NCBI GenBank assembly: GCA_036398075.1
Contig: DASWHT010000265.1
Location: 1-29,820 of the forward strand
Origin: Candidatus Binatia bacterium
GTDB lineage: Bacteria; Desulfobacterota; Binatia; UBA9968
Length of the DNA: 29,820 nucleotides
Reading direction: 5' to 3'
Positions 1 through 13,844 of this stretch are shown piece after piece. The notes beneath the pieces were generated by a model, which was given only the letters and a program-made list of their open reading frames with translations, made no database searches and was not told where the DNA came from. A program made the position numbers and the translations under genes. How positions within the stretch are numbered: the first letter of the stretch is position 1; each line of letters begins with the position of its first letter.

Positions 1-709
1 CGATCTCTTCGCTCGGCTGCATGGTGATGCCTTTTTCGGGAGCGATGCGGAACAGATACTGCGCGGGATCGAGGGCTGTGCTGCGCATTTTTTCGATGGT
101 GATGGTGCGCACGAAGCGGCTGTTGGCCAATTCCAACTCCAAGACGATTGTGCCGGCGACAAGATACTCTTCGATGCCGCGGGTGCCTCGGCCTAGGGAT
201 TGGGAAGTGACAAGGGTGGTGATTTCGGGGTTCTTTTGCAGTGACGCGATGAGCATGCGCGCCTGGTCTTGAGCTTTCGACGGGGAATCGGCGGCGTGAA
301 TCAATGGCCCAACGGGATCGATCACCACCCGCGTCGCACCACTCTTGGCGATATGGTTGTTGAGCTCGACGATGATTTTTTGGAGATCGTTTTTCGAACT
401 AATGTCGCTCACCCGCGCAGTGATCAGAGCGGAGGCGTCCAGGATCAGCAAGTCCTTCAGGTCGACATGTGGGGTCAAGTCCCAGCCCAGCGACGCCGCC
501 TGGTCCACCAGGTCGGCGGGTTTTTCGTCGATGGTGACGTAGAGCGCTTTTTCGCCGTCTTTCAGCGCCTGGTGGAGAAATTGCAGCGCGAAAATGGTCT
601 TGCCGGTGCCGGGCTCGCCAAGCGCTAAATAGGTCTTGCCCCGTCTGAAACCGCCGTCGAGCAGGGCATCCAGTTCGTGAATACCGGTGGATACGCGTTT
701 TTCGTTCAT
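1..709 (-). CDS. KaiC/RAD55-like single-domain RecA-fold ATPase, 3' end truncated by the window edge
   Basis: Absent from the ORF track (no stop in window). Manual translation from ATG 709: MNEKRVSTGIHELDALLDGGFRRGKTYLALGEPGTGKT (Walker A)...LYVTIDEKP...RVVIDPV (Walker B)...EEYLVAGTIVL...RTITIEKMRST (KxR finger); open to base 1 (236 codons). Confidence 0.9.
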   Translation of the reverse strand, partial: MNEKRVSTGIHELDALLDGGFRRGKTYLALGEPGTGKTIFALQFLHQALKDGEKALYVTIDEKPADLVDQAASLGWDLTPHVDLKDLLILDASALITARVSDISSKNDLQKIIVELNNHIAKSGATRVVIDPVGPLIHAADSPSKAQDQARMLIASLQKNPEITTLVTSQSLGRGTRGIEEYLVAGTIVLELELANSRFVRTITIEKMRSTALDPAQYLFRIAPEKGITMQPSEEI

Positions 710-806
710 GTGCAAAACTTCCACATTACTGGATCTGTATGGTTTGGCAGCTTGGGCAAAATTTCTGACCGCCAATTATCGTGGCCCCGGCACTCAATGG
801 AACAAA

Positions 807-890
807 TTCTCACTACAAAGCGCAGGAAGGCCATGAAGCGATGGATATTTTTGCTCTTAAGCTTCGTGCTCTTCGCGTCCTTCGTGATAA
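807..890. repeat. Degenerate REP-like palindrome built from 9-nt CACGAAG-type units
   Basis: Left arm cactacaaagcgcaggaaggccatgaag (811-838); right arm cttcgtgctcttcgcgtccttcgtg (862-886). Imperfect complementarity; intergenic. Confidence 0.55.
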
Positions 891-971
891 AGTTTGCGCT
901 TTCATTTTTGGTTGCGTCTCCGCGCGTGTGACCGTCTCCCGATTCTAGGAGAAGGAAGGGGTTAGGGCGCC

Positions 972-3878
972 TCAGGGCGCGCTTCTGCGCACTTTCCACC
1001 GCCCGCTTCGCTCCTTAAGCTCCGCCCGCACGCGCTCGATTTCCGCCGACATCCTTTCCTGGAGTTTGACGAGTTGTTCTTTTTCACTCGGAGGCTGAGT
1101 TGCTGCCGGGTTTTCCCCCTTGGCGATTGGTTCCGGCGCTTGCGTGGCACTTGCCTCTGGCGGCGCCGACACGAACTGAACGGCGACTGGTGCCGAGTTT
1201 TGAGCTCCCTGAATGGCGGCGCTCAACTGCGCCACCCGTTGGATCACGGATTGAGATCTATCCTTTAGTTCTTTCAGCTCGGCATCGCGGCTTTCGAAGA
1301 CGCTGAATTTCTGCGTCACCTGCTGGTTCAACTCATGAATCTTGGCGCTCAAGTTTTCTTCCAGGCAGCGCAGCGCCGGATCGGAAGATGTCATCACAGC
1401 GGGCCGTTGGAGGAGATCCGTTTTGAGCTTGGCCATTTCGGTTGTAAACCCGGCGATGATCTGTTCGGCTTCTTGGCTGCGCTCGGCGTCGCGCCTGTCG
1501 AGGAGAACCAGTTTCTCTGCCACCTGTTGTTGCGATTCTTGAATCTTCGCGCCGAACAATTCTTCGAGGCCGCGCAGGGCGGCGTCCGCGGTGACTTCCG
1601 GGCGCTCGTTCAGGCCTGATTTAAGTGCGGTAATTTCGCCCTGCAGCACGGCGATCTCATTATGCAGGGCCTCTAGGGTCTCATCGGCTTGCCGTGCGCG
1701 CTCGGCGTCCCGGCTGTCGATGAGCGTGAATCTCTCCGCCAGTTGTTGATCGAGTTCGTGAATCTTGGTCCGGAGCGATTCCTGAATGGTATACGACAAA
1801 CTTTCGGCGGACGGAAGACGGCTCTGCTGCTGCACGAAATCCGCTCTAAAAGTTCCCAGCTCAGCATTGAGGCGGTTTAAGGCTTGTTCTGTTTGCTGGA
1901 CGCGCTCGCTGTCGCGGCTGTCATAGAGGCTGAATTTTCGGGTTACTTGTTCTTCAAGTTGGCTCAAGTTGGCGCCAAGGGTTTCTTGCAAGCCGCGAAT
2001 GATCGATTGGGAAGGGGGGGGCGGGCGTTGATCGAACGATGCTTTGAAAGCACTGAATTCGCCGCAGAGATCGGTGAGGCTCTGCTCGACGTGTTGGTGG
2101 GTTGCGGTGGCCCGACCCTCTGCCTGGCGGCCCTGAGATTCCAACTGGCTTGTTCGCTCGCTGAGCGCGCCAAATTCCGAGCGGAGTTGGGCCCATTGTT
2201 CGTGGTCGTAGTCTTGGGACTGAAATTTCTCTTTGAGCTGTGCTTCTAGTTCCTGAATGCTTGCCTTGACGGTTTCTTCCAAACGCTCAAGACGGGAGTG
2301 ACGGTATTCGATCTGGCTCTGGCGTTCGCTGAGGCGCACTTGCATCGCGCTCAGCTCGGCGCTGAAAGACTCGCGGAGACCCTTGCCCCAGTGGTCGAAC
2401 CCTTCCCGTTCGACGGCCAGTTGGCGCTGGAGTTCGTCAATTTTGACGCCGAGCTTGTGCTCGATTTCGGACATCCGCGCCTCGGGCAGACGAAAGGCGC
2501 GCTGTTGCTCGTTGAGTTCGGCTTTGAGCGCCGTGATTGCGCTTTTGAAGCCCTCCTCCAATTCCTCGGCGTGCTTGGCGCTGGCGTCAGCCCGGGCCTG
2601 CACCCTTTGAGCCACAGACTCTACCTGGCCGATGCGCTGCGCCAGCGTCTGAATTTCCGGTTTAAGACGAGCCAGTCCTTCATGGCCGCTGGCGAGGGCG
2701 CGTAGCTTCTCGCCGTTACGCTCCTCTTGCTCCGTGAGTTTAGCGCCTAGACTCGCTCCGAGTTCCCTGGCGCGGTTTTCTTGTTCGGCGTCGTGGCTCG
2801 CGAGGAGCATGAATTTTTGCGCTGTCAGGTGTTGCCATTCCTCGAGCTTGGCGCGCAGCGACGCTTCGAGGTCTTCGATGGCCAGCTGGCGCGTCTGAGC
2901 CTCGCCGAGCTTGGCGTGCAGCGCCGCCAGTTCCGTTGCGATTTTCTCGCGAAAGTCTGACGCTAAACTCACTTCACCCGGCACCAGCGCTTGGATCTCA
3001 CGCGACTGCGACTCTGTTTTCGTCAAGCGCTCCGCGAGCATGGCTAGCTCGGAGTCGAGCTGTCCGAGCCGTGCGTCGCGCCCGAGCTGAACATGATGTT
3101 CCTGCGCCAGCCGGCTTAGAATTTCTTCGATCTTGTCACCCAGGCTCTGGGTAATTTCATCGAGCAGGGAATCGGGCCGGCGGCCGTTGCGCTGTTGGTC
3201 ATTGAGTTCGGCGAATACCGCTTTTAGCGCGACGATTTCTCCCTTGAGGTTTTCGGCGGTGTGTTCGAGTTGCTGAGCATTGCGCGACGCGAAGGATCGG
3301 GTTTGCCAGGCAGTTGACTCAGCTTGACCGACCCGTTCAGTGAGCGACTGTGCCTCAGATTTGAGATGACGCAACTCTCCCTGGGCGGCGCGGACACCGC
3401 CAAGCTCTTCACGTATTTTATCTTCCAAAGCTCGGATCTGGGCGCCGAACGATTCTTCTAGCCTTTCGAATCCCGAGTAGCGAGCTTCCAGTTCCGTTTG
3501 TCGACCGCTGAGTTGCGCCCGCAAAACGCCTAGCTCATCTTGAACAAACTCTTTGGTGGCGTCGCCAGGAGCCTTTGCGCCTTCGATCCGCGTCATGCGG
3601 TCAGAATAGACGGAAATCTCGGATTTAAGATGGTTAAGCTCCGCCTCGCGGCTCTCTAGTATCTGGTGCTGCAATTCGGCGATCTGACCGACCAGCGTAG
3701 TTTCCAAATGTTTGATCTGGTCGACCCGTTGCGTTTCGCCGGCGGCAAAGGACTGAGCGAGCCCAAGATCGGCTTCTGCCTTTCTTACGAGCCAATCGAA
3801 CAACGTATCTTTGCCACTACCCATCCGTCCTCCGTCGCGGTTGGACGGAGTCTCGCTTTTTTCGTCAAACAATCCCAC
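972..3878 (-). CDS. 968-aa internally repetitive coiled-coil protein of unknown function
   Basis: Long ORF; GTG start with GAGGAG RBS. Glu/Gln/Leu/Ala/Arg-rich heptads; no TM segment, signal peptide or NTPase motif seen. Four tandem 68-73 aa repeats (KFxxxDxRDxE). Confidence 0.88.
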   Translation of the reverse strand: MGLFDEKSETPSNRDGGRMGSGKDTLFDWLVRKAEADLGLAQSFAAGETQRVDQIKHLETTLVGQIAELQHQILESREAELNHLKSEISVYSDRMTRIEGAKAPGDATKEFVQDELGVLRAQLSGRQTELEARYSGFERLEESFGAQIRALEDKIREELGGVRAAQGELRHLKSEAQSLTERVGQAESTAWQTRSFASRNAQQLEHTAENLKGEIVALKAVFAELNDQQRNGRRPDSLLDEITQSLGDKIEEILSRLAQEHHVQLGRDARLGQLDSELAMLAERLTKTESQSREIQALVPGEVSLASDFREKIATELAALHAKLGEAQTRQLAIEDLEASLRAKLEEWQHLTAQKFMLLASHDAEQENRARELGASLGAKLTEQEERNGEKLRALASGHEGLARLKPEIQTLAQRIGQVESVAQRVQARADASAKHAEELEEGFKSAITALKAELNEQQRAFRLPEARMSEIEHKLGVKIDELQRQLAVEREGFDHWGKGLRESFSAELSAMQVRLSERQSQIEYRHSRLERLEETVKASIQELEAQLKEKFQSQDYDHEQWAQLRSEFGALSERTSQLESQGRQAEGRATATHQHVEQSLTDLCGEFSAFKASFDQRPPPPSQSIIRGLQETLGANLSQLEEQVTRKFSLYDSRDSERVQQTEQALNRLNAELGTFRADFVQQQSRLPSAESLSYTIQESLRTKIHELDQQLAERFTLIDSRDAERARQADETLEALHNEIAVLQGEITALKSGLNERPEVTADAALRGLEELFGAKIQESQQQVAEKLVLLDRRDAERSQEAEQIIAGFTTEMAKLKTDLLQRPAVMTSSDPALRCLEENLSAKIHELNQQVTQKFSVFESRDAELKELKDRSQSVIQRVAQLSAAIQGAQNSAPVAVQFVSAPPEASATQAPEPIAKGENPAATQPPSEKEQLVKLQERMSAEIERVRAELKERSGRWKVRRSAP

Positions 3879-3935: not shown

Positions 3936-3967
3936 TTATCGGTCACAGACAAGCCAAACTTGTGCCA
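3936..3967 (-). promoter_or_regulatory. Overlapping candidate sigma54 and sigma28 promoters for the coiled-coil gene
   Basis: Minus strand TGGCAC-AAGTT-TGGCT (3967-3952, GG-N10-GC) overlaps CAAG-N15-ACCGATAA (3962-3936). Confidence 0.5.
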
Positions 3968-4300: not shown

Positions 4301-4316
4301 TGGCAAGCTTATTGCG
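4301..4316 (+). promoter_or_regulatory. sigma54 promoter of the chemosensory operon
   Basis: TGGCAA-GCTTA-TTGCG with exact GG-N10-GC spacing, about 90 nt before ATG 4409. Confidence 0.7.
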
Positions 4317-4408: not shown

Positions 4409-4792
4409 ATGTCCAAAAATAGGGGCAACAAAAGAATTCTGTTGGTGGATGATTCGGAAACCGTTCTCATGTTGGAGCGGATGATTCTCAAGGGGGGCAG
4501 TTACGAACTGGCGATGGCAAAAGACGGCAAAGAAGCGGTTGCCAAGGCGCTGGCGCTGAGACCGGATTTGATTCTGATGGACGTGATCATGCCGAAGATG
4601 AACGGGTTCGACGCGATACGCGAGTTGCGTCGACGCCCCGAGACCCGGTCGATTCCCATTCTTATTGTAACTACGAAGGGGGAAGAAGAAAGCATGGAAA
4701 CCGGCTACCTGAGCGGTTGTAATGACTACATCACCAAGCCCATTGACAGCCTGGAGTTGCTCACCAAGATACGAAGCTTTCTTGGTACGTAA
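4409..4792 (+). CDS. Single-domain response regulator (CheY-like receiver)
   Basis: ILLVDDS, LILMD (phospho-Asp) VIMPKMNG, VTT, YITKP; no output domain. Confidence 0.92.
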   Translation: MSKNRGNKRILLVDDSETVLMLERMILKGGSYELAMAKDGKEAVAKALALRPDLILMDVIMPKMNGFDAIRELRRRPETRSIPILIVTTKGEEESMETGYLSGCNDYITKPIDSLELLTKIRSFLGT

Positions 4793-4821
4793 GGCATTCA
4801 AACCTGAGGATAGTTAAACTT

Positions 4822-5583
4822 ATGGCAAAGGCGCCAAGAAGGAAGAGGATCTCTAAAGGGTGGCCCAAAACCGCCCGGGATATCCCCGCTACGCCAGGCG
4901 ATCTTGTGCCCGTGCGCAGACAAGCGGCCGCCGTTGAAGGTGAAACCCCGCGATTGCGCAACCGCGTGGCCGAACTGGAGAAAGAACTCGAACGGTTGCA
5001 AACCGAGCGTATCGACGCAGTTGTCCAGGGATCAGGCGGGGATAGGCTGTTGGCTCAGCAATTCGTTGCCACGGAGTTACAGCACGGCGACATGGCTAGT
5101 CTCTACGTCGCAAGCACGAGGCTGCAAGCGACGCTAAGAAAGCAGGAGGTATTGGCGGCTATCCGTGAAATCGTCATAAACCTGATCGGAGTTGAGGAGA
5201 TGGCGTTGTTCGAGAACCATCCTCGGACGTCGACGTTGTCGTTGATCGATTACTACGGTAATGGGTGGGCGAATCATTCCAATATCCCTGTTGGCGAAGG
5301 TCCCATTGGACGAGTCGCGTTGACCGGCGATTGCTATTTTCACGACCTGAAGGGCACTGAACGGGAGCCCGGCAATGCGAACATGCCGACGGCCTGTGTT
5401 CCATTAAAAGTGGACGGCGTGGCGTGGGGAGTGATCGTGATTCTTCGCCTATTGCCACAAAAGGACCGTCTAGTGGCGCTCGACTATCAACTTCTTGACC
5501 TCCTTTCAACTCAGGCGGGAATTGCGCTTCACTGCGCCGAATTGAGTGCCGAGCGGGCCGCGGCTAGGGAGATCATGGCATGA
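4822..5583 (+). CDS. Soluble coiled-coil + GAF domain protein
   Basis: RBS TGAGGA; basic N-tail, coiled coil (LRNRVAELEKELERL), GAF signatures (IPVGEGPIGRVALTG, ACVPLKVDG..WGVIVI, LLDLLSTQAGIAL); ATGA overlap with cheD. Confidence 0.82.
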   Translation: MAKAPRRKRISKGWPKTARDIPATPGDLVPVRRQAAAVEGETPRLRNRVAELEKELERLQTERIDAVVQGSGGDRLLAQQFVATELQHGDMASLYVASTRLQATLRKQEVLAAIREIVINLIGVEEMALFENHPRTSTLSLIDYYGNGWANHSNIPVGEGPIGRVALTGDCYFHDLKGTEREPGNANMPTACVPLKVDGVAWGVIVILRLLPQKDRLVALDYQLLDLLSTQAGIALHCAELSAERAAAREIMA

Positions 5584-6149
5584 CGCCGAAATTTAAAGCC
5601 AATGCAAACTCTACTGCTGCACGGACCTTGGTAGGGGGTTGGACGGCGTGCACCGTTGCGGACAACGGGAGACTTCGCGTGGCCCCGGATAGCGGCGCGC
5701 GGACTAAGGTGTATCTTCACCCTGGTCAACTGTTTACCGCCGCCCATCCCAGCGCCATTACAACCGTTCTGGGTTCCTGCGTATCCCTGTGTCTTTGGGA
5801 CCCGGTGCTGAAAATCGGCGGCGTCAATCATTATTTGTTGCCGTTCTGGGTGGGGGACGATATAGCATCGCCCCGTTTCGGAACAGTAGCGATCGAGACT
5901 TTGATCGAAAAAGTCCTTTCTCTTGGAGCGCGCAAGAATCGATTACGGGCGAAACTCTTCGGCGGTGCCTGTGTCATTGAGGCCTTTCGGGAAAGGAAAG
6001 ATCATGTTGGGATCGTCAACGCTCGGCTGGCTGAAAATATGTTGCACATGCAGGGTATCCCAGTGGTGGAGCGGGACCTGGCAGGACGCAGGGGCCGCAA
6101 GCTCGTCTTCAACACGGACGATGGTACGTCGTGGATCAAGTACCTTTAG
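5580..6149 (+). CDS. cheD: Chemoreceptor glutamine deamidase CheD
   Basis: YLHPGQ, TTVLGSCVSLCLWD (catalytic Cys), GGVNHYLLP (His), AKLFGGA, DLAGRRGRKLVF. Confidence 0.95.
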   Translation: MTPKFKANANSTAARTLVGGWTACTVADNGRLRVAPDSGARTKVYLHPGQLFTAAHPSAITTVLGSCVSLCLWDPVLKIGGVNHYLLPFWVGDDIASPRFGTVAIETLIEKVLSLGARKNRLRAKLFGGACVIEAFRERKDHVGIVNARLAENMLHMQGIPVVERDLAGRRGRKLVFNTDDGTSWIKYL

Positions 6150-6229
6150 GAGGTCGCCAAAAAAGAACGATATGCCAGTATGTTTCATAATAAGCCTGTG
6201 TGAAAGTTGTGCTCAGTCAAGTCGCGCCA

Positions 6230-6291
6230 TTCGTGCTCGTTTCTCGTGCTCGTGCTCGAACGAACACGAGCCACGAATACGAACGACGAAT
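6230..6291. repeat. Degenerate REP-like hairpin of CTCGTG/CACGAG hexamer units
   Basis: ttcgtgctcgtttctcgtgctcgtgctcg followed by cgaacacgagccacgaatacgaacgacgaa, in the cheD-cheA gap. Confidence 0.6.
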
Positions 6292-6368
6292 ACCGCGCGC
6301 CTCACCTCTGAGATTTTTTTGAGCGGCCCGAATTCAGAGTCTGTCGGCGCTCTATTAGGAAGCGGAGC

Positions 6369-8033
6369 ATGGCTCTAGATATCGATATAGATCTCGAAAC
6401 AATCCTTCGCACCTTCGCCGCGGAATGCGAAGAGCGCATCGCTGAAATGGAAGAGGCGATGGTGGCCCTGGAATCGCATCCCGAGAACCGAGAACTTCTC
6501 AATACGATTTTTCGCGGTGCTCATACGATAAAGGGTAACGCTGCTAGTCTGGGAATGGCCACGGTGGCTGAGTTCACCCACGCGTTAGAAAGTCTCTTGC
6601 AGCGCTTGCGCGCCGGAGCGATTCCGGTAAGTCGCAAGGCGGTAACACTCTTGCTCCAGTCTGTTGACGCGCTGCGCGAAATGTTGCCGGGGGCCATGGC
6701 CGGGGAGGAGCAACGCAAGTCGGATCACGCGGCGTTGCTCTTAAGGCTTGCCGAGGGCGGCGTCGGCATCGAGCAGCATCCGCGCACCGCCGAGGTGGAA
6801 AATATAGAAGAACCTGCCGGCGGCGCGCGCAACGGCACGATCCGCGTGGAAATTCAAAAGCTCGACCGCATGCTCAATCTCGCCGGGGAAATCGCCATCG
6901 CTCAGGGACGATTGCACCAGGCCTTGGGCGGCGAAAAAGCCGGAAAAGACGCCATTGAAGCCCGCGAGCAATTGGAACGCCTGTCTTTGGATTTGCAAGA
7001 AGAGATCATGAAAGTCCGCATGGTGCCGGTGGGCCCGGTTTTTCGCCAGTATGCTCGGGTCGTACGCGATGTCGCGCTGGCTGCGGGTCGGGAGGCGCGC
7101 CTCGCCTTGGAAGGCGAAGACGCGGAGATCGATCTCAGTGTGGTCGAGCATCTCAAAGATCCGCTCACGCACATGGTCCGTAACGCCATCGATCACGGCA
7201 TCGAATCGCCCGAGACGCGCCGCGCGCGGGGAAAAGACCCCTGCGGACTTCTCACTCTCAAAGCTTTCCGTGATGGGGGCACCATCGTCGTGCAGCTCAT
7301 CGACGACGGTGCCGGCTTGAATTGTGAGCGCATTATTGCCCGTGCCAAAGAGCGGGGTTTGGTCGCGAACGGCGATAAATTATCCGAACAGGAAATTTTC
7401 CAGTTCATTTTCGAACCGGGGTTTTCCACGGCGACGACCGTCACGGAGCTGTCGGGACGCGGCGTCGGTATGGAGGTCGTTAGGCGCGACATCGAAGCCG
7501 TGCGTGGATCTGTGGGGCTTCAAAGCGAAGCGGGCAGGGGTACTACGTTCACTATCCGTTTGCCGCTGACGCTGGCGATCATCGAAGGCTTCGGTGTCGG
7601 CGTCGGCGACGATACTTATATTTTTCCGTTACATGCGGTGCGGGAGTGCTGGCCATTCGTCGGCCAAGAACAGGCTGGCGCCAACGGCCGAGGAATGATC
7701 AACTTGCGCGGCGAGCCTCTTCCTTACGTTCGGCTACGCCACCGTTTCGGCATCGAGGCGTCGCGCCCGGGGCGCGAATCTGTCGTCGTCGTGGCATCCC
7801 AGGGCGTAAAGGCCGGGATCGTGGTAGACACTCTCTACGGTCCGCGCCAAACGGTGATCAAACCGTTAGACAAGCAGTTGTTCCGTTCCTCGAGTATCGC
7901 CGGCTCGGCGATCCTCGACAATGGCCGTGTGGCGCTGGTTCTGGACATTCCAAGTGTGCTCCGAGACGTGATCCAAAGTTCCAGTCAAGTAAGTCGCGCC
8001 AACGCACTACCCCTGATCGAACAAGAGCGGTAG
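6369..8033 (+). CDS. cheA: Chemotaxis histidine kinase CheA lacking a P2 domain
   Basis: Hpt (FRGAHTIKG), short linker to dimerization domain (TIRVEIQKLDRMLNLAGE), HATPase boxes (HMVRNAIDHGIE, DDGAG, GFST, SGRGVGM), C-terminal CheW-like domain. Confidence 0.97.
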   Translation: MALDIDIDLETILRTFAAECEERIAEMEEAMVALESHPENRELLNTIFRGAHTIKGNAASLGMATVAEFTHALESLLQRLRAGAIPVSRKAVTLLLQSVDALREMLPGAMAGEEQRKSDHAALLLRLAEGGVGIEQHPRTAEVENIEEPAGGARNGTIRVEIQKLDRMLNLAGEIAIAQGRLHQALGGEKAGKDAIEAREQLERLSLDLQEEIMKVRMVPVGPVFRQYARVVRDVALAAGREARLALEGEDAEIDLSVVEHLKDPLTHMVRNAIDHGIESPETRRARGKDPCGLLTLKAFRDGGTIVVQLIDDGAGLNCERIIARAKERGLVANGDKLSEQEIFQFIFEPGFSTATTVTELSGRGVGMEVVRRDIEAVRGSVGLQSEAGRGTTFTIRLPLTLAIIEGFGVGVGDDTYIFPLHAVRECWPFVGQEQAGANGRGMINLRGEPLPYVRLRHRFGIEASRPGRESVVVVASQGVKAGIVVDTLYGPRQTVIKPLDKQLFRSSSIAGSAILDNGRVALVLDIPSVLRDVIQSSSQVSRANALPLIEQER

Positions 8034-8070
8034 CGGAGAGATAAGTTGCTGGTAGCCAAAGGAGAAAGTC

Positions 8071-9723
8071 ATGTTCAAGCGTATTAGAATCGCCAGTCGT
8101 GTGGGTCTCGGCTTTGCTTTGATCATGGTCATGATGGGAGTTATGGCGGTGGCGGCGTATTGGGCAGTGAGCAAGGTCGAGAGCTTTTCGGTCCAGGTGA
8201 TCAAAGGCGACGCCGAAGTGGCCGAACGTGCGGCGTGGAACGTGGCTCACAGTTTGGGCCTGCGCCGCTTTGAAAAAGACGTCTTTTTTAACATCGGCCA
8301 TCCGGCAAGAGTGGAGGAGAGTATCAAAAAATGGATCGAGCAGCGCGTCCTGATGGAAAAGAGTATCGAAGCCATTGATCATTACTCCCATCGTGACTAC
8401 GACAAATATACTACGGCGGCTATGCGCCGGGAACTTGTGGCGTACGCGGATGGTTTTCTCAAAATCGCGGAACAGGTTAGAACCGGAGCCATCAAAAAAC
8501 CGCAAGACGCGAATGATGCTATTGAAAGTTATAGTCCGATTATGGGCCGGCTGGAAAAAATCGCAATGGACATGGCCCGAGAATATAAACAGAAGCTGAG
8601 CGCCAGCGAGCAGCATTTGGCAAGTTATGTCGCACAAACCATCCAAATCATGCTTGCTCTGCTCGGCGCCACCGCCGTCATGATTGTCGTCATCACTCTG
8701 GGTGTGTCGCGCAGTATCACCGAGCCGATCAACGGACTCGTGGAGCGCTTGCATGATATTACCAAAGGCGATGGGGACCTTACCAAACGCTTGGATGTGA
8801 ATTCCCGAGACGAGATCGGGGAGGTTGCGCAGCTGTTCAACTCTTTCATGGGTAATCTCTCGCAGGTTATTGGAGAGGTGCGCAACGCCTCCAACGGATT
8901 GGCGTCCGCTTCGGCGTTGGTCTCCTCATCGGCCCAGACGCTGTCCCAGGGGACCAGTGAACAGGCGGCGTCGGTGGAGGAGACCACCGCGAGTTTGCAG
9001 CAGATGAATGCCTCGATCACGCAAAACGCTGAAAATAGCCGGCAGATGGAGCAGATGGCTCTCAAGGGCGCCAAGGACATGGAGCAGAGCGGCAGAGCGG
9101 TGGCGGAGTCGGTGGAGGCGATGAAGACGATAGCGGAAAAGATTACGATCATCGAAGAGATCGCTTATCAAACCAATCTGTTGGCCTTGAACGCGGCCAT
9201 CGAGGCGGCCCGTGCGGGAGAGCACGGGAAGGGGTTCGCGGTGGTCGCCGCCGAGGTGAGCAAGCTAGCGGAACGGAGTCAGGGCGCGGCGCAAGAAATT
9301 AGTGCGTTGGCAGCCTCCAGCGTCAAAGTAGCCGAACGCTCCGGCGAGCTTCTGCGGGAGCTGGCGCCGGCAATCAGGAAGACGGCCGAGTTGGTGCAAG
9401 AGGTAGCCACGGCATCACGTGAGCAGTCCGCTGGAGTAGCACAAGTGAACCGCGCCATGACCCACGTGGATCAGGTAACCCAGAGAAACGCTTCGGCCGC
9501 GGAGGAATTGTCAAGTACCGCAGAAGAAATGGCGTCCCAAGCTGAGACTCTCAAGTATCTCATTAGTTTCTTCCAAATAGATTCAGCCAAGGGGCTCCAG
9601 ACCGGCAACGCGGCGCCGGCGAGCCGGAGAAACCCAACCTTTGAGTTCCACCAGCCGCGCAACGCCGTGCGAACGGACCAGCGTGCCAGCGGAGGGGACC
9701 AAGAATTCAGGCCTTGGGCTTAG
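8071..9723 (+). CDS. Methyl-accepting chemotaxis protein (two TM helices, helical periplasmic sensor, HAMP, 34H-type signalling domain)
   Basis: TM1 about aa 10-32, TM2 about aa 192-212, HAMP ([19 protein letters not shown]), hairpin tip [30 protein letters not shown]. The QNAEN-to-QTN segment is 7 aa shorter than in E. coli Tsr (36H). Confidence 0.96.
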
Positions 9724-9755
9724 AAATAGGTGTAGGATTTGCGAAGAACGGGGGA

Positions 9756-9817
9756 GGATGAGAATGAAGGATGAAAGCCGAACGCAGTAGACGGGAGTCA
9801 GAATTCAGAAGACAGAG
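9756..9817. repeat. Degenerate REP-like remnant (GGATGAA units plus cagaattcagaa unit)
   Basis: ggatgagaatgaaggatgaa then gagtcagaattcagaa; the same two unit types recur at 22701-22766. Confidence 0.45.
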
Positions 9818-9870
9818 ATCGGAAAGAATGGGGGGCGATCGGAGACGATGAACATTAGGAGAAGTCAACG

Positions 9871-10353
9871 ATGAAGGCGGCGGAAAACGTCGGCGGGCAT
9901 GGTCAGTACATGACCTTTCAATTGTCGGGGCAGGAATATGGCCTGAGTATCATGCAGGTGAGAGAGATCATCGGATATCGTAGCCTAACCAGAGTGCCGC
10001 AGACGCCACCGTTTATTCTGGGCGTGATCAACTTGCGCGGCAATGTCGTGGCGGTGCTGGACCTGGCACTACGATTCGGCCTGACCCCGAGCCCTATTAC
10101 GGGGCGGACCTGCATAATCATCGTGGAGGCGAATTTGACGGGTAAACCAGTTCGCACGGGGATTCTCGCCGACTCGGTCAGCAAAGTTTTGGAACTTTCC
10201 CCCGACGAAATTTTGCCGGCGCCGGCGTTCGGTACCCGAGTGCGGGAGGATTTTTTGCGTGGCGTTGGTCGGGTCGGGGAAACGTTTGTTCTGTTGCTCG
10301 ATGTCAACAAGGTGTTGCTGAACGGCGGGCTCCCCACGAGCGCCGCGGCCTAG
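9871..10353 (+). CDS. cheW: Chemotaxis coupling protein CheW
   Basis: RBS AGGAG; QYMTFQLSGQEYGLSIMQVREII, TRVPQTPPFILGVINLRGNVVAVLDL, GILADSVSKV. Confidence 0.96.
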   Translation: MKAAENVGGHGQYMTFQLSGQEYGLSIMQVREIIGYRSLTRVPQTPPFILGVINLRGNVVAVLDLALRFGLTPSPITGRTCIIIVEANLTGKPVRTGILADSVSKVLELSPDEILPAPAFGTRVREDFLRGVGRVGETFVLLLDVNKVLLNGGLPTSAAA

Positions 10354-10373
10354 CGAGGTTTTCGCGTTAGCCC

Positions 10374-11264
10374 ATGATTCTGATTACAGACCAGGAATTC
10401 AGCCTATTTCAGAAGCTGATTCATCAACAGGCGGGTATATACCTTTTGCCCGCAAAAAAACCGTTGCTGGAAGCGCGGCTCGGCAAGCGCATATTTCACT
10501 TGGGTCTGGACTCGTTTACGGCGTACTTCAATTACCTGCTAGAAAACTGGGATGAGGAAATCGCTGAAATGCTTGACCGCGTTTCGACCAATGAAACGCA
10601 CTTTTTTCGCGAGCCGCGGCAATTTGATTTTTTATCCCGGCTCGTTGTTCATGATTGGACGGCGCAGGCCGACGCCGGATTGCGTCCACGACATATGCGC
10701 GTGTGGAGCGCCGGCTGTTCGACCGGCGAAGAGCCCTATTCCCTGGCCATGATTCTCTGGAATAATTTCCCGCCGTCGGCGGGATGGGAGATCGAGGTTC
10801 TCGCCACAGATATATCGAACCGGGCCCTCGAACGGGCGCGACAAGCCATTTGGCCCATTGAAAAGGCAAAGAACATTCCCGATGCATACCTCAAGCGCTT
10901 CATGTTGAAAGGGACGGGAGCGCAATCGGGAAAAATGAAGGCGGGAGCGGAAATTCGCTCGGTGATCCGTTTTGAACGGCTCAATCTTAACGACACGGTC
11001 TATCCGGTGACAAGCCTCTTTGACATCATTTTGTGCCGCAATGTGCTGATCTATTTTGACGATGCCCATAGAGCCCGAGTCGCCGATCGGCTGCTGGAGC
11101 ATCTTGCCACCGGCGGCTTTTTTTTTGTCGGACATGCGGAACAATTGAACGGCCTGATGCATAAAATTTTGAATATTTCGCCAACGATCTATGTTCGCGT
11201 CGGCCGAGGGGAATTCGGCATTATGGGCGGCGTGCCGCGCCAGGAAGCGAGCGGCGTTCGATGA
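10374..11264 (+). CDS. cheR: Chemotaxis methyltransferase CheR
   Basis: STNETHFFRE, RVWSAGCSTGEEPYSLAM, ATDIS, FDIILCRNVLIYFD, VGHAE. Confidence 0.97.
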   Translation: MILITDQEFSLFQKLIHQQAGIYLLPAKKPLLEARLGKRIFHLGLDSFTAYFNYLLENWDEEIAEMLDRVSTNETHFFREPRQFDFLSRLVVHDWTAQADAGLRPRHMRVWSAGCSTGEEPYSLAMILWNNFPPSAGWEIEVLATDISNRALERARQAIWPIEKAKNIPDAYLKRFMLKGTGAQSGKMKAGAEIRSVIRFERLNLNDTVYPVTSLFDIILCRNVLIYFDDAHRARVADRLLEHLATGGFFFVGHAEQLNGLMHKILNISPTIYVRVGRGEFGIMGGVPRQEASGVR

Positions 11265-12367
11265 ATAGTGACACCGTCAATCCTTTGCATGTTCTAGTCG
11301 TTGATGACTCGGCCGTTGTGCGCGAAGTCATGAACGCCGTGCTCTCACAAGAGCGGGGAATTATCGTCACCACGGCCGCCGACCCCATCATTGCCATGAC
11401 CAAGATGGCCAGGCAGCGACCGGATGTCATTCTACTCGACCTGGAAATGCCGCGAATGAGTGGGCTGGCTTTTCTCCGAAAGCTCATGACTGAAAGCCCC
11501 ATTCCCGTAGTTGTATGCTCCGCCCACGTTGGCGAGGAGACCGCTCTCGGGTTACAGGCGCTGGAAGAGGGCGCCATTGACGTGGTGGCAAAACCAAACT
11601 TAGGGGTGCGCGAGTTTCTCCACGAGTCGGCGGTTCTTCTGATCGATGCCGTACGCGCGGCGGCCAAATCCAACGTGAAACTCCGTCGCCCCGCGAGCGC
11701 AACGGCGTCGCCGGCACTCAGCGCTGATGCGGTCCTGCCGGCAAGAGCCACCTTGGCGCCGGCGCTGAACAGCGAGAGGATCGTCGCCATCGGCGCATCC
11801 ACAGGCGGAACGGAGGCGTTGCGCGTGCTCCTCGAAGCCATGCCCGAGGACGCCCCGGGGTTCGTGGTGGTCCAACATATGCCTGAAGGCTTTACCGCCG
11901 CTTTCGCTAAACGCCTCAGCAAAACCTGCAAGATCCACGTAACGGAAGCTGCTCAGGGGGATGCGATCGTCAACGGGCGGGCGCTAATCGCCCCTGGCAA
12001 CCGCCATACGCTGGTGCGCCGCAGTGGCACCACCTATTACGCCGAGGTGGTCGATGGACCTCTCGTTGCGCGCCACCGGCCCAGTGTCGATGTGCTGTTT
12101 CGCTCAGTGGCCCAGACTGCCGGGCCGAACGCCGTCGGTGTGATTTTGACTGGTATGGGCAGTGACGGCGCGCGCGGCCTGCTGGAGATGAAACGAGCGG
12201 GAGCGTTGACTATTGCCCAAGACGAGCAGACCTGCGTCGTATTCGGAATGTCGAAGGAAGCCATCGGCTACGGCGCGGTCCGCAACATCGCATCCTTGCA
12301 ACAGATTCCAGGGATAATTCTAAGCGCACATCATGGCGCTTGGCGGGTGGCGGGAAACGCGCCGTAG
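11261..12367 (+). CDS. cheB: Chemotaxis response regulator/methylesterase CheB
   Basis: Receiver (VVDDS, LLDLEMP) plus esterase triad motifs GASTGG, QHMP, GMGSDG; ATGA overlap with cheR. Confidence 0.97.
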   Translation: MNSDTVNPLHVLVVDDSAVVREVMNAVLSQERGIIVTTAADPIIAMTKMARQRPDVILLDLEMPRMSGLAFLRKLMTESPIPVVVCSAHVGEETALGLQALEEGAIDVVAKPNLGVREFLHESAVLLIDAVRAAAKSNVKLRRPASATASPALSADAVLPARATLAPALNSERIVAIGASTGGTEALRVLLEAMPEDAPGFVVVQHMPEGFTAAFAKRLSKTCKIHVTEAAQGDAIVNGRALIAPGNRHTLVRRSGTTYYAEVVDGPLVARHRPSVDVLFRSVAQTAGPNAVGVILTGMGSDGARGLLEMKRAGALTIAQDEQTCVVFGMSKEAIGYGAVRNIASLQQIPGIILSAHHGAWRVAGNAP

Positions 12368-12597: not shown

Positions 12598-12990
12598 GTG
12601 AGCAACACAAAAGCTGTGAAAGTTCTGGTAGTTGACGATTCGAAAACAATGATTGCAATGATTGCCGCGCATCTCAAAGACACTGGCTTCGAGGTCGTGG
12701 CGACGGCGTCGAGCGGACGAGAAGCGCTGGAAAAATATCAGGCGCATAGACCGCAGGTCGTTCTTTTGGACATCGTAATGCCGGTTGAAAACGGCGTGGA
12801 AACGCTGGAGCATATCCTTCACGTGGACACCGCCGCCTGCGTGGTGATGGTCAGCTCCATGGGCACCGAAGCAGAGGTGCAGGATTGCTTAAAGAAGGGC
12901 GCCAAGAGCTTTCTGCAAAAGCCATTGAAAAAAGACCACATGCTTTCAACTCTAAATATCGTCTGCCAGGAGACCGGGGTGGCGCTATGA
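12598..12990 (+). CDS. cheY: CheY-like single-domain response regulator
   Basis: Start revised to GTG 12598 (RBS AAGGAG at 12584-12589); VLVVDDS, LLDIVMP, VSS, FLQKP; ATGA overlap with the CheX-like gene. Confidence 0.88.
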   Translation: MSNTKAVKVLVVDDSKTMIAMIAAHLKDTGFEVVATASSGREALEKYQAHRPQVVLLDIVMPVENGVETLEHILHVDTAACVVMVSSMGTEAEVQDCLKKGAKSFLQKPLKKDHMLSTLNIVCQETGVAL

Positions 12991-13844
12991 GCTCAAGATT
13001 CTTCGGTCAATACCTTCTGGAAAAAGGGCGGATCACCTCGCAGCAGCTGTCCTCGGCGCTGGACACCCAGAAGGCCGCGACGCCGCCCATCGGTATCCTG
13101 GCGCTTGAAAAAGGCTGGCTGACGGCGGAGCAGATCAAGCAGATTCTCGATCGGCAAAAGAAAACCAACTACCGCTTCGGTGAACAGGCAGTTTTGTCAG
13201 CTCTGCTCACGCAGACTCAAGTGGACGAATTACTGGGCGCGCAGGAGACAAGTCACCGAGTCTTGCTCGGCGACGTGCTGGTGTCGAAGGGCTATTTGAC
13301 CCTTGCGGCGCTGGAAAAAGAGTTCAAGGAATACGATAAAGACGAGGAAAAACTTTCTTTCGAACTTGCGGCTGCCTTCGACAAGGTGCGCAACAGAGAA
13401 CTGGTCAAGACCTTCACCGACTTGATGATGATCATGTTCACCCGTTTCGCCAAGCAAGAGCTCAAAATCGAACAGTGCGAGACCGGGAAAGAGAAGGTCC
13501 GGCTGTTTCGCTGGGTATTCTCGCAAAAGATCGCAGGCAAGAATGTCGAATTCAACTGCCTGCTCTCCGTACCGCCGAAACTTTTGCTGCACATGGCTTC
13601 TACGATGCTGGACGAAACGGTTAGCGCGCCCGACGAACTGGCCCTCGATGCGAGCAAAGAATTTGTCAACATCGCCAACGGCAATGCCTGCGCCCGGCTC
13701 TCGGAGAACGGTTTTAACTTTACCATGGAGCCGCCCGAAGTCTATGAGACAACGGCCAAACCCTATCCATTTAATGCCAAGGATGTGGTTTGCGTGCATC
13801 TGGCCTCGCCCGATGCGAAATTGGAAGTCGCCTTTGAGTTCTGA
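12987..13844 (+). CDS. CheX-family phosphatase with four N-terminal MshEN-like repeats
   Basis: Start revised to ATG 12987. Repeats with Gly at aa 7/36/65/95 (FFGQYLLEKGRIT..L..AL..Q and similar); C-terminal DASKEFVNIANG containing the CheC/CheX E-x-x-N motif. Confidence 0.82.
   Translation: MSSRFFGQYLLEKGRITSQQLSSALDTQKAATPPIGILALEKGWLTAEQIKQILDRQKKTNYRFGEQAVLSALLTQTQVDELLGAQETSHRVLLGDVLVSKGYLTLAALEKEFKEYDKDEEKLSFELAAAFDKVRNRELVKTFTDLMMIMFTRFAKQELKIEQCETGKEKVRLFRWVFSQKIAGKNVEFNCLLSVPPKLLLHMASTMLDETVSAPDELALDASKEFVNIANGNACARLSENGFNFTMEPPEVYETTAKPYPFNAKDVVCVHLASPDAKLEVAFEF

Follow-up and report, generated by a model that had tools for sequence, protein, structure and literature searches.

We analysed a 29,820-nucleotide (nt) stretch of a Candidatus Binatia bacterium genome (contig DASWHT010000265.1 of assembly GCA_036398075.1, here contig C265), which we call the window, with a focus on the KaiC-like ATPase gene at its left edge. 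Judged from the sequence, this gene is the last of a two-gene, sigma-54-type operon; the first gene encodes a long coiled-coil protein (the rod protein), and the operon lies back to back with a chemosensory operon. The ATPase is predicted to be a stand-alone ring subunit of the CI type, with glutamates at the positions that are phosphorylated in clock KaiC. The best overall explanation, in which we have moderate confidence, is that the rod protein and the ATPase form a unit which serves as an accessory of the adjoining chemosensory pathway. The family, fold and motifs of the ATPase, the operon structure, the conservation of the promoter, the synteny and the co-occurrence with chemosensory genes are observations and are described before the proposed function.

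Operon structure and genomic context

The gene of the 968-amino-acid (aa) rod protein, which is built of coiled-coil repeats (972..3878, minus strand), is the first gene of the operon and lies upstream of the ATPase gene (2..709, minus strand) on the same strand. The original prediction, which was made from the letters of the window, placed the ATPase gene co-oriented downstream of the coiled-coil gene with a 262-nt gap between them (710-971), and both statements are correct. We collected 20 related loci through their homologues of the coiled-coil protein; in all 20 the ATPase gene comes directly after the coiled-coil gene and in the same orientation. A second set of 79 loci from soil metagenomes was selected by alignment of the C-terminal half of the ATPase alone, because a generic P-loop pattern swamped a scan of genome contigs, so that few close relatives were recovered; the coiled-coil gene is found upstream of the ATPase gene in 49 of the 59 loci that have at least 450 nt of upstream sequence.

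The length of the gap between the two genes differs among relatives: G001 has the same 262 nt as the window, G002 has 129 nt and G003 has 3 nt, and the range in genus g17 is 50–215 nt. In the window the gap (710..971, minus strand) has no sigma-54, sigma-70 or terminator match and bears a dispersed repeat at about 843-886; an inserted stretch carrying this repeat has enlarged the gap in the sub-lineage of the window. Separate transcription of the ATPase gene, which had been left open, is therefore unlikely, given the 3-nt gap in G003, the absence of a promoter or terminator match and the insertion that explains the size of the gap. It had also been considered that the ATPase gene might belong to a separate left-hand operon. 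This is not so: its left-hand neighbour in the relatives is a convergent aminotransferase gene, hence the ATPase gene is terminal in its unit. The repeat consists of CACGAAG-like units, with copies 92–96% identical over 25–33 nt on at least eight other contigs of the same genome and one longer, 44-nt match at 86% identity. The 'REP-like element' described earlier is thus real in the sense of a 25–44-nt stretch that recurs in this genome.

Concerning the promoters, a sigma-54-type -24/-12 element (TGGCAC-N5-TTGGC; 3953..3967, minus strand) is located 74 nt before the start of the coiled-coil gene. In about 17 of 22 loci (genera g1, g17 and g27, and metagenome contigs) the pattern TGGCA(C/T)-N5-TT(G/A)GC is found 47–117 nt ahead of the coiled-coil gene, and g13 has a near-variant of it. 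A second sigma-54-type element (4301..4315, plus strand) is present on the che side of the 530 nt that separate the coiled-coil gene from the che operon. The two elements diverge, which suggests that a single enhancer-binding protein controls both. The rod protein and the ATPase would be co-transcribed from the predicted sigma-54-dependent promoter.

The divergent chemosensory operon (4409..12367, plus strand) contains, based on Pfam, genes for a CheY-like response regulator (RR), which comes first (4409-4792), a GAF protein, CheD, CheA, a methyl-accepting chemotaxis protein (MCP), CheW, CheR and CheB, and Pfam also confirms the flagellar/chemotaxis context that had been recognised for the locus. 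The pair of rod and ATPase genes is divergent from the RR–CheD–CheA operon in 18 of 20 related loci and in G094 (together covering genera g1, g17 and g20) and in all 13 metagenome contigs that extend at least 2.5 kb past the coiled-coil gene. The arrangement is kept despite differences between genera in the gene order of the che operon and in the opposite flank. The tallies for the family given here and below (orthologues, rod protein, CheA and PilM) include unpublished genomes (G009, G015, G046 or G067). Among the 31 genomes of g17, the module and the orthologous CheA are present together in 17, only one of them is present in four and neither in ten. CheA orthologues with at least 53% identity are found only in genera which also carry the rod protein.

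The distribution of the module differs from that of the flagellum. FlhA is found in 17 of the 90 genomes of the family (four of four in g1, three of 31 in g17 and none of eight in g27), and eight module carriers of g17 that are at least 90% complete have no detected FlhA. No strong match to the rod protein was found in the flagellated genera g19, g16, g5 and g8. Flagellated relatives without such a match (G019:C130, G043:C1, G088:C105 and G085:C66) possess a longer CheA (690–890 aa, about 42–44% identical), which lies on the contig of flhA where both were located (g16, g5 and two g19 genomes). The two different CheA types indicate that the family has two distinct Che systems, only one of which accompanies the KaiC-like module. 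The term 'motility-control module', proposed from the window, therefore holds in part. The ATPase and the coiled-coil protein are a conserved unit linked to chemosensory genes across g1, g17, g20 and the metagenome contigs, and possibly to the type IV pilus. A flagellar role does not agree with the distribution, as the module is common in g17 and g27, where FlhA is rare or was not found, and the flagellated genera named above have no strong rod match.

PilM is found in 81 of the 90 genomes, and the norm in the family is that priA is divergent from pilMNOPQ. In three species of g27 the module lies between priA and pilM and is co-oriented with pilM: two of them contain both genes (G098 and G102) and the third contains only the ATPase gene (G105). 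In the latter (L188, G105:C218, 6126-7581), the lone ATPase gene precedes pilM and about 560 nt at the position of the coiled-coil gene of the relatives are non-coding, hence the rod gene may have been lost. A pilus context was also considered for the copy in G016 and was rejected, its neighbours being DHDPS-like, methyltransferase, PMT and TPR genes. In G003 (L026, G003:C35, 4171-8883), a genome which is only 60% complete, the operon from RR to CheB is missing and the pair is located directly beside cheX–fliM–motAB. Also, a g17 genome with no detected FlhA (L079, G020:C58, 620-2079) keeps at the end of its che operon a CheX-like gene, whose product is 66% identical to that of window positions 12885-13844, and a receiver gene.

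The rod protein is far less conserved than its partner: between genera its identity is 25–33%, and that of the ATPase is 55–66%. Its length varies from 324 to 1189 aa across the relatives, and its conserved parts are an N-terminal motif and, behind a variable linker, a C-terminal helix whose end is a basic tail (...SGRWKVRR). We compared the rod protein with HmpF, a coiled-coil protein which is encoded beside chemotaxis-like systems and whose localisation controls type IV pili (PMC12288463). The genomic logic is the same as for HmpF of Nostoc punctiforme, i.e. a coiled-coil gene beside a chemotaxis-like operon; however, HmpF is reported in cyanobacteria only, has no KaiC-like partner and shows no real homology to the rod protein. 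An assignment as HmpF (NF038350) was rejected, since the score of 18.1 bits versus a cut-off of 200 is at the level expected from coiled-coil composition.

The ATPase and its relation to known families

The open reading frame (ORF) of the ATPase runs on the minus strand from the ATG at 709 to base 2 and is open at the window edge. The source is a metagenome-assembled genome (83.5% complete, 566 contigs), and base 1 of the window is base 1 of contig C265; the truncation of the gene is therefore due to the assembly and not to biology. The orthologues of the same genus (G001, G002 and G003; 97, 94 and 83% identity, respectively) are all 238 aa long and stop two residues past the final codon of the window, so that the window copy, with 236 of 238 codons, is short of two codons and the stop only. 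The start is fixed at ATG 709, because the conservation among relatives begins exactly there. The ORF, the length of the orthologues, the Pfam match and the AlphaFold2 (AF2) model all support the gene as delimited. The Pfam KaiC domain (PF06745) matches with 201.3 bits (gathering threshold 26.6, E-value 1.9e-59) over profile positions 1–230 of 231. No fused close form was found among longer proteins, the best of which are distant multi-domain KaiC homologues with at most 40% identity. The reading of the gene as a single-domain KaiC-like ATPase is thus correct: the profile match is full-length, the orthologues have one domain and only two codons and the stop are missing.

The best sequence match of the ATPase in the PDB is KaiC (8zn5), with 117 bits for the CI half versus 45 bits for the CII half. 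The AF2 model, built on an alignment of 55 sequences, has a predicted local distance difference test (pLDDT) score of 87.8 and is closest to crystal structures of KaiC CI (TM score 0.83–0.88, root-mean-square deviation 2.6 Å, 32% identity); a first model, based on 21 close sequences, was of low quality (pLDDT 61.6) and was discarded. The CI-type features of the protein are the greater similarity to CI than to CII, the acidic phosphosite segment and the K-x-R finger. The NCBIfam models all score under their cut-offs: 145 bits for the circadian KaiC CI region, 100–125 for archaeal KaiC groups and 53 for ArlH.

The motifs quoted in the original prediction are all present in the translation. The Walker A motif GEPGTGKT (residues 31–38; 596..619, minus strand) and the Walker B motif VVIDP (D131-P132; 314..328, minus strand) were read from the translation, and G31, G34, K37 and D131 are invariant in the 55-sequence alignment. 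D61-E62 in TIDEK (524..529, minus strand) are at the position of the catalytic Glu–Glu pair of CI, based on the alignment to KaiC 8zn5 and the motif table. In the same alignment E180-E181 in EEYLVAG (167..172, minus strand) fall on the CI segment 'VEEF', i.e. they are Glu–Glu as in KaiC CI, where CII has the Ser/Thr phosphosites. K207-x-R209 in IEKMR (83..91, minus strand), the CI-type Lys/Arg finger segment, fall on 'LKFRG', and both residues are invariant among the 55 sequences. One correction is needed to the earlier description: D-E, IDP and EEY are common to the whole bacterial radiation of these ATPases and are not specific to this gene. Archaeal relatives carry E-E at the catalytic pair according to the motif table, and D-E and IDP also occur, together with S-T phosphosites, in the CII half of the two-domain KaiC from the same genome. 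Natural variants exist within the clade linked to coiled-coil genes: D-Q instead of D-E in g27 (L080 and L081), and a Walker A with GKL instead of GKT/S in one g17 orthologue (L088, G051). Together with the Asp in place of the first catalytic Glu, these suggest that the clade tolerates hydrolysis that is slow or not needed, a property more in keeping with a switch than with a motor; in other words, the variants of the active site hint that hydrolysis may not always be required.

In a maximum likelihood tree of 72 sequences, ArlH forms a separate clade (support of 99 by the Shimodaira–Hasegawa-like approximate likelihood ratio test, SH-aLRT), the archaeal KaiC-like proteins form clades of their own and the bacterial proteins form one radiation. 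The ATPases linked to coiled-coil genes are one clade within the tree (SH-aLRT 100). The original prediction drew an analogy with ArlH of the archaellum; read as kinship, it does not hold, as the fold is nearest to KaiC CI. Membership in ArlH/FlaH (NF052589) was rejected, with 53.1 bits versus a cut-off of 215, the separate clade, and the coiled-coil gene and che operon as neighbours; as a control, ArlH of Methanolobus scores 274.7 bits with the same model. What the two proteins have in common is one KaiC-like domain of about 230–240 aa and a tie to a motility system. They differ in that ArlH is reported to be nearer to CII, whereas the window ATPase is nearer to CI, and in that no arlI or arlJ is found nearby.

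Membership in circadian KaiC was also rejected (TIGR02655: 106 versus 546 bits; NF006799: 145 versus 408 bits), as the protein has one domain and Glu–Glu at the phosphosites. The KaiB of the genome does not adjoin the window ATPase; it is found on contig C172 beside a two-domain KaiC. On this contig (C172:13876-16000) the two-domain homologue, of 605 aa, has the CII phosphosite motif I-S-T, and KaiB is directly downstream. With 312 bits versus the circadian KaiC cut-off of 546, the two are a separate KaiBC pair. The window ATPase shares with KaiC CI 31–33% identity, Walker A and B, the acidic catalytic pair, the Glu–Glu phosphosite segment and the K-x-R finger; it differs by the lack of a CII ring and of an adjacent KaiA or KaiB, by the Asp that replaces the first catalytic Glu, by its coiled-coil partner and by its chemosensory and pilus gene context.

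Two further assignments were tried and rejected. The match to GvpD (PF07088) reaches 24.3 bits over 39 P-loop residues only, and there are no gvp genes in the window. Concerning anti-phage defence, PADLOC gave for the ATPase only mad8 with 21.6 bits, where no individual stretch passes by itself, and nothing for the partner protein. The solved archaeal proteins PH0186, PH0284 and SSO2452 have the same single-domain architecture and a similar length (E-values of 1e-23 to 1e-26); they are less similar to the ATPase than KaiC CI is, and are found in other contexts. KaiC-family ATPases, some with helical partners, have been described in or beside archaeal type IV pilus loci, as predicted regulators (Makarova et al. 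2016, PMC4858521). Those families are archaeal, and the sampled archaeal relatives form separate clades with about 27–33% identity, whereas the clade of the window is bacterial and stands beside a Che operon.

Paralogues and distribution

Paralogous modules of the same ATPase family are found elsewhere in the genome of the window and in its relatives. On contig C362 (8279-15028; L184:4280-11029, minus strand) a 1019-aa coiled-coil protein, a 238-aa KaiC-like paralogue (46% identity) and ClpB (875 aa) are encoded in the same orientation. The coiled-coil protein of this contig also has a basic, Trp-containing tail (...KRRWKA), which follows a low-complexity linker. G010 contains the ATPase gene followed by clpB, and the unpublished G009 contains the rod protein, the ATPase and ClpB. 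In the unpublished G015 a coiled-coil gene is upstream of a tandem pair. In a further locus (L029, G012:C149, 4389-10427) a single-domain ATPase of another clade is followed by a REC–KaiC fusion (396 aa), a REC–HisKA–HATPase hybrid kinase and ClpB, and in two Marinamargulisbacteria loci (L036 and L037) by a protein of about 370 aa with a REC domain. The combination of the ATPase with a REC–KaiC or REC protein looks like a split, receiver-gated two-ring KaiC. In view of these paralogues, a rod with a single-ring KaiC is a recurring design with various neighbours, and the clade linked to che genes is a derived branch of it.

Among 401 sampled genomes of the phylum, no close homologues were found outside this bacterial family. 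Two database matches labelled Terriglobales and Limnocylindria (about 60% identity, on short contigs) may be binning errors.

Proposed function and alternative explanations

The ATPase is expected to be a RecA-fold P-loop protein that forms a ring, and from its intact Walker motifs (A and B) and its Lys/Arg finger, nucleotide is predicted to be bound at the subunit interfaces, as in CI. Most likely the ATPase and the rod protein act as one unit: the nucleotide-dependent ring would bind the rod, with the conserved C-terminal helix and basic tail of the latter as the candidate dock, and the nucleotide state of the ATPase would govern how the rod assembles, where it is located or how it binds its partners. 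The unit would be co-regulated with the che operon from the shared control region and functionally coupled to it, and most likely serves the output of the adjoining Che pathway (CheY-like RR, CheD, CheA, CheW, MCP, CheR and CheB). Because most carriers have no detected FlhA, type IV pilus genes are present in all of them and the g27 insertion is at the head of pilMNOPQ, the target is probably the type IV pilus or the motility apparatus of the cell, and not the flagellum itself. We infer ring formation, the binding of the ATPase to the rod, the link to CheY and the target; the function proposed here rests on gene context.

A more specific form of this proposal takes the archaellum as its model. 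ArlH binds, as a hexamer, to ArlI, which is homologous to PilB and PilT, the ATPases of the pilus (bioRxiv 10.1101/2021.03.19.436134), and due to this homology an analogous action of the ATPase on a type IV pilus is conceivable. By analogy, the module might be a bacterial counterpart of the ArlH–ArlI logic, in which a KaiC ring, controlled by CheY and delivered or gated by the rod, would dock on the base of the type IV pilus (PilB/PilT or PilM) and switch pilus extension or the polarity of the cell. We consider this specific form doubtful.

Several findings weigh against a role as an accessory of the chemosensory pathway. Che genes do not accompany the pair in g27, nor in G016, where its neighbours are unrelated, nor in G003, from which the che operon is missing. 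The paralogous ATPase modules of the same family adjoin clpB and not motility genes, which means that the che neighbourhood may be incidental. The adjacency to pilM is a single evolutionary event, with a gap of at least 235 nt between the ATPase gene and pilM, and the make-up of the che operon is of flagellar type (CheD, a short receiver-less CheA and CheX nearby). Also, all carriers are uncultured and belong to one bacterial family; hence the conserved synteny may be partly due to shared descent, and the counts are not independent.

These same observations, i.e. the modules beside clpB (C362, G010 and G012), the copies of the pair in g27, G016 and G003, and the data from a single family, support the view that the module is a neighbour of the che operon by descent only. 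It would then be an autonomous scaffold/ATPase system, such as a cytoskeletal element, a polar organiser or a regulator of stress or proteostasis, with no tie to chemotaxis or the pilus. We regard this as rather unlikely. The divergent che arrangement outlasts rearrangement of the che operon and a total change of the other flank, and within g17 gains or losses of the module coincide with those of the CheA orthologue. Moreover, the sole relocation seen is to the head of pilMNOPQ, i.e. another motility operon, and sigma-54-type elements are present on both strands of the shared control region. Alternatively, the pair could position or partition the chemoreceptor array and not act in output, in the manner of ParC and PpfA, the ParA-like ATPases of Vibrio and Rhodobacter. 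An ATPase with a long scaffold that adjoins MCP, CheA and CheW genes and co-occurs with that type of CheA is consistent with such an organiser; however, the fold is that of RecA/KaiC and not of ParA/MinD, the pair is kept in g27 without a CheA orthologue (none of eight) and in G003 after the loss of the che operon, and the adjacency to pilM fits an output role better. We find this explanation improbable.

Two other explanations start from the family of the ATPase. An ArlH-like motor accessory of the bacterial flagellum would agree with the position of the gene in the genus of the window, at the edge of a flagellar/chemotaxis supercluster, and with its place beside cheX–fliM–motAB in G003. It is contradicted by the distribution, since most carriers have no detected FlhA and several flagellated relatives have no strong rod match; the ArlH hidden Markov model scores 53 versus 215 bits and true ArlH is a separate clade, so that this role is very improbable. 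Equally little credence can be given to a KaiC-type phospho-timer or clock component. The protein is a member of the KaiC family, and KaiB and a two-domain KaiC are encoded in the genome too, but KaiB lies beside the latter on another contig, the window protein is a single domain with Glu–Glu at the Ser/Thr phosphosites, and its 106 and 145 bits are far from the circadian cut-offs of 546 and 408.

We found no description of this rod/ATPase module in the literature searched. KaiC proteins as a family, and the concept of signalling hubs built on KaiC-like proteins, are already known; what we did not find there are the bacterial clade, its rod partner, the sigma-54 operon and the coupling to the Che operon and pilMNOPQ. 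In archaea KaiC-like ATPases are predicted to act as signalling hubs; in bacteria, to our knowledge, they have hardly been studied outside the clock. In the bacterial lineage studied here, single-ring KaiC proteins have radiated with varied partners (coiled-coil proteins, REC–KaiC fusions and ClpB). The way in which chemosensory pathways act on targets beyond the flagellar switch is known for few systems, such as Pil-Chp, Frz and Hmp, and the rod protein with its KaiC CI-like ATPase offers a concrete candidate for a non-flagellar chemosensory output or organiser. If the ring does dock on the base of the pilus in the manner of ArlH on ArlI, it would add a new branch to the outputs of bacterial chemosensory systems.

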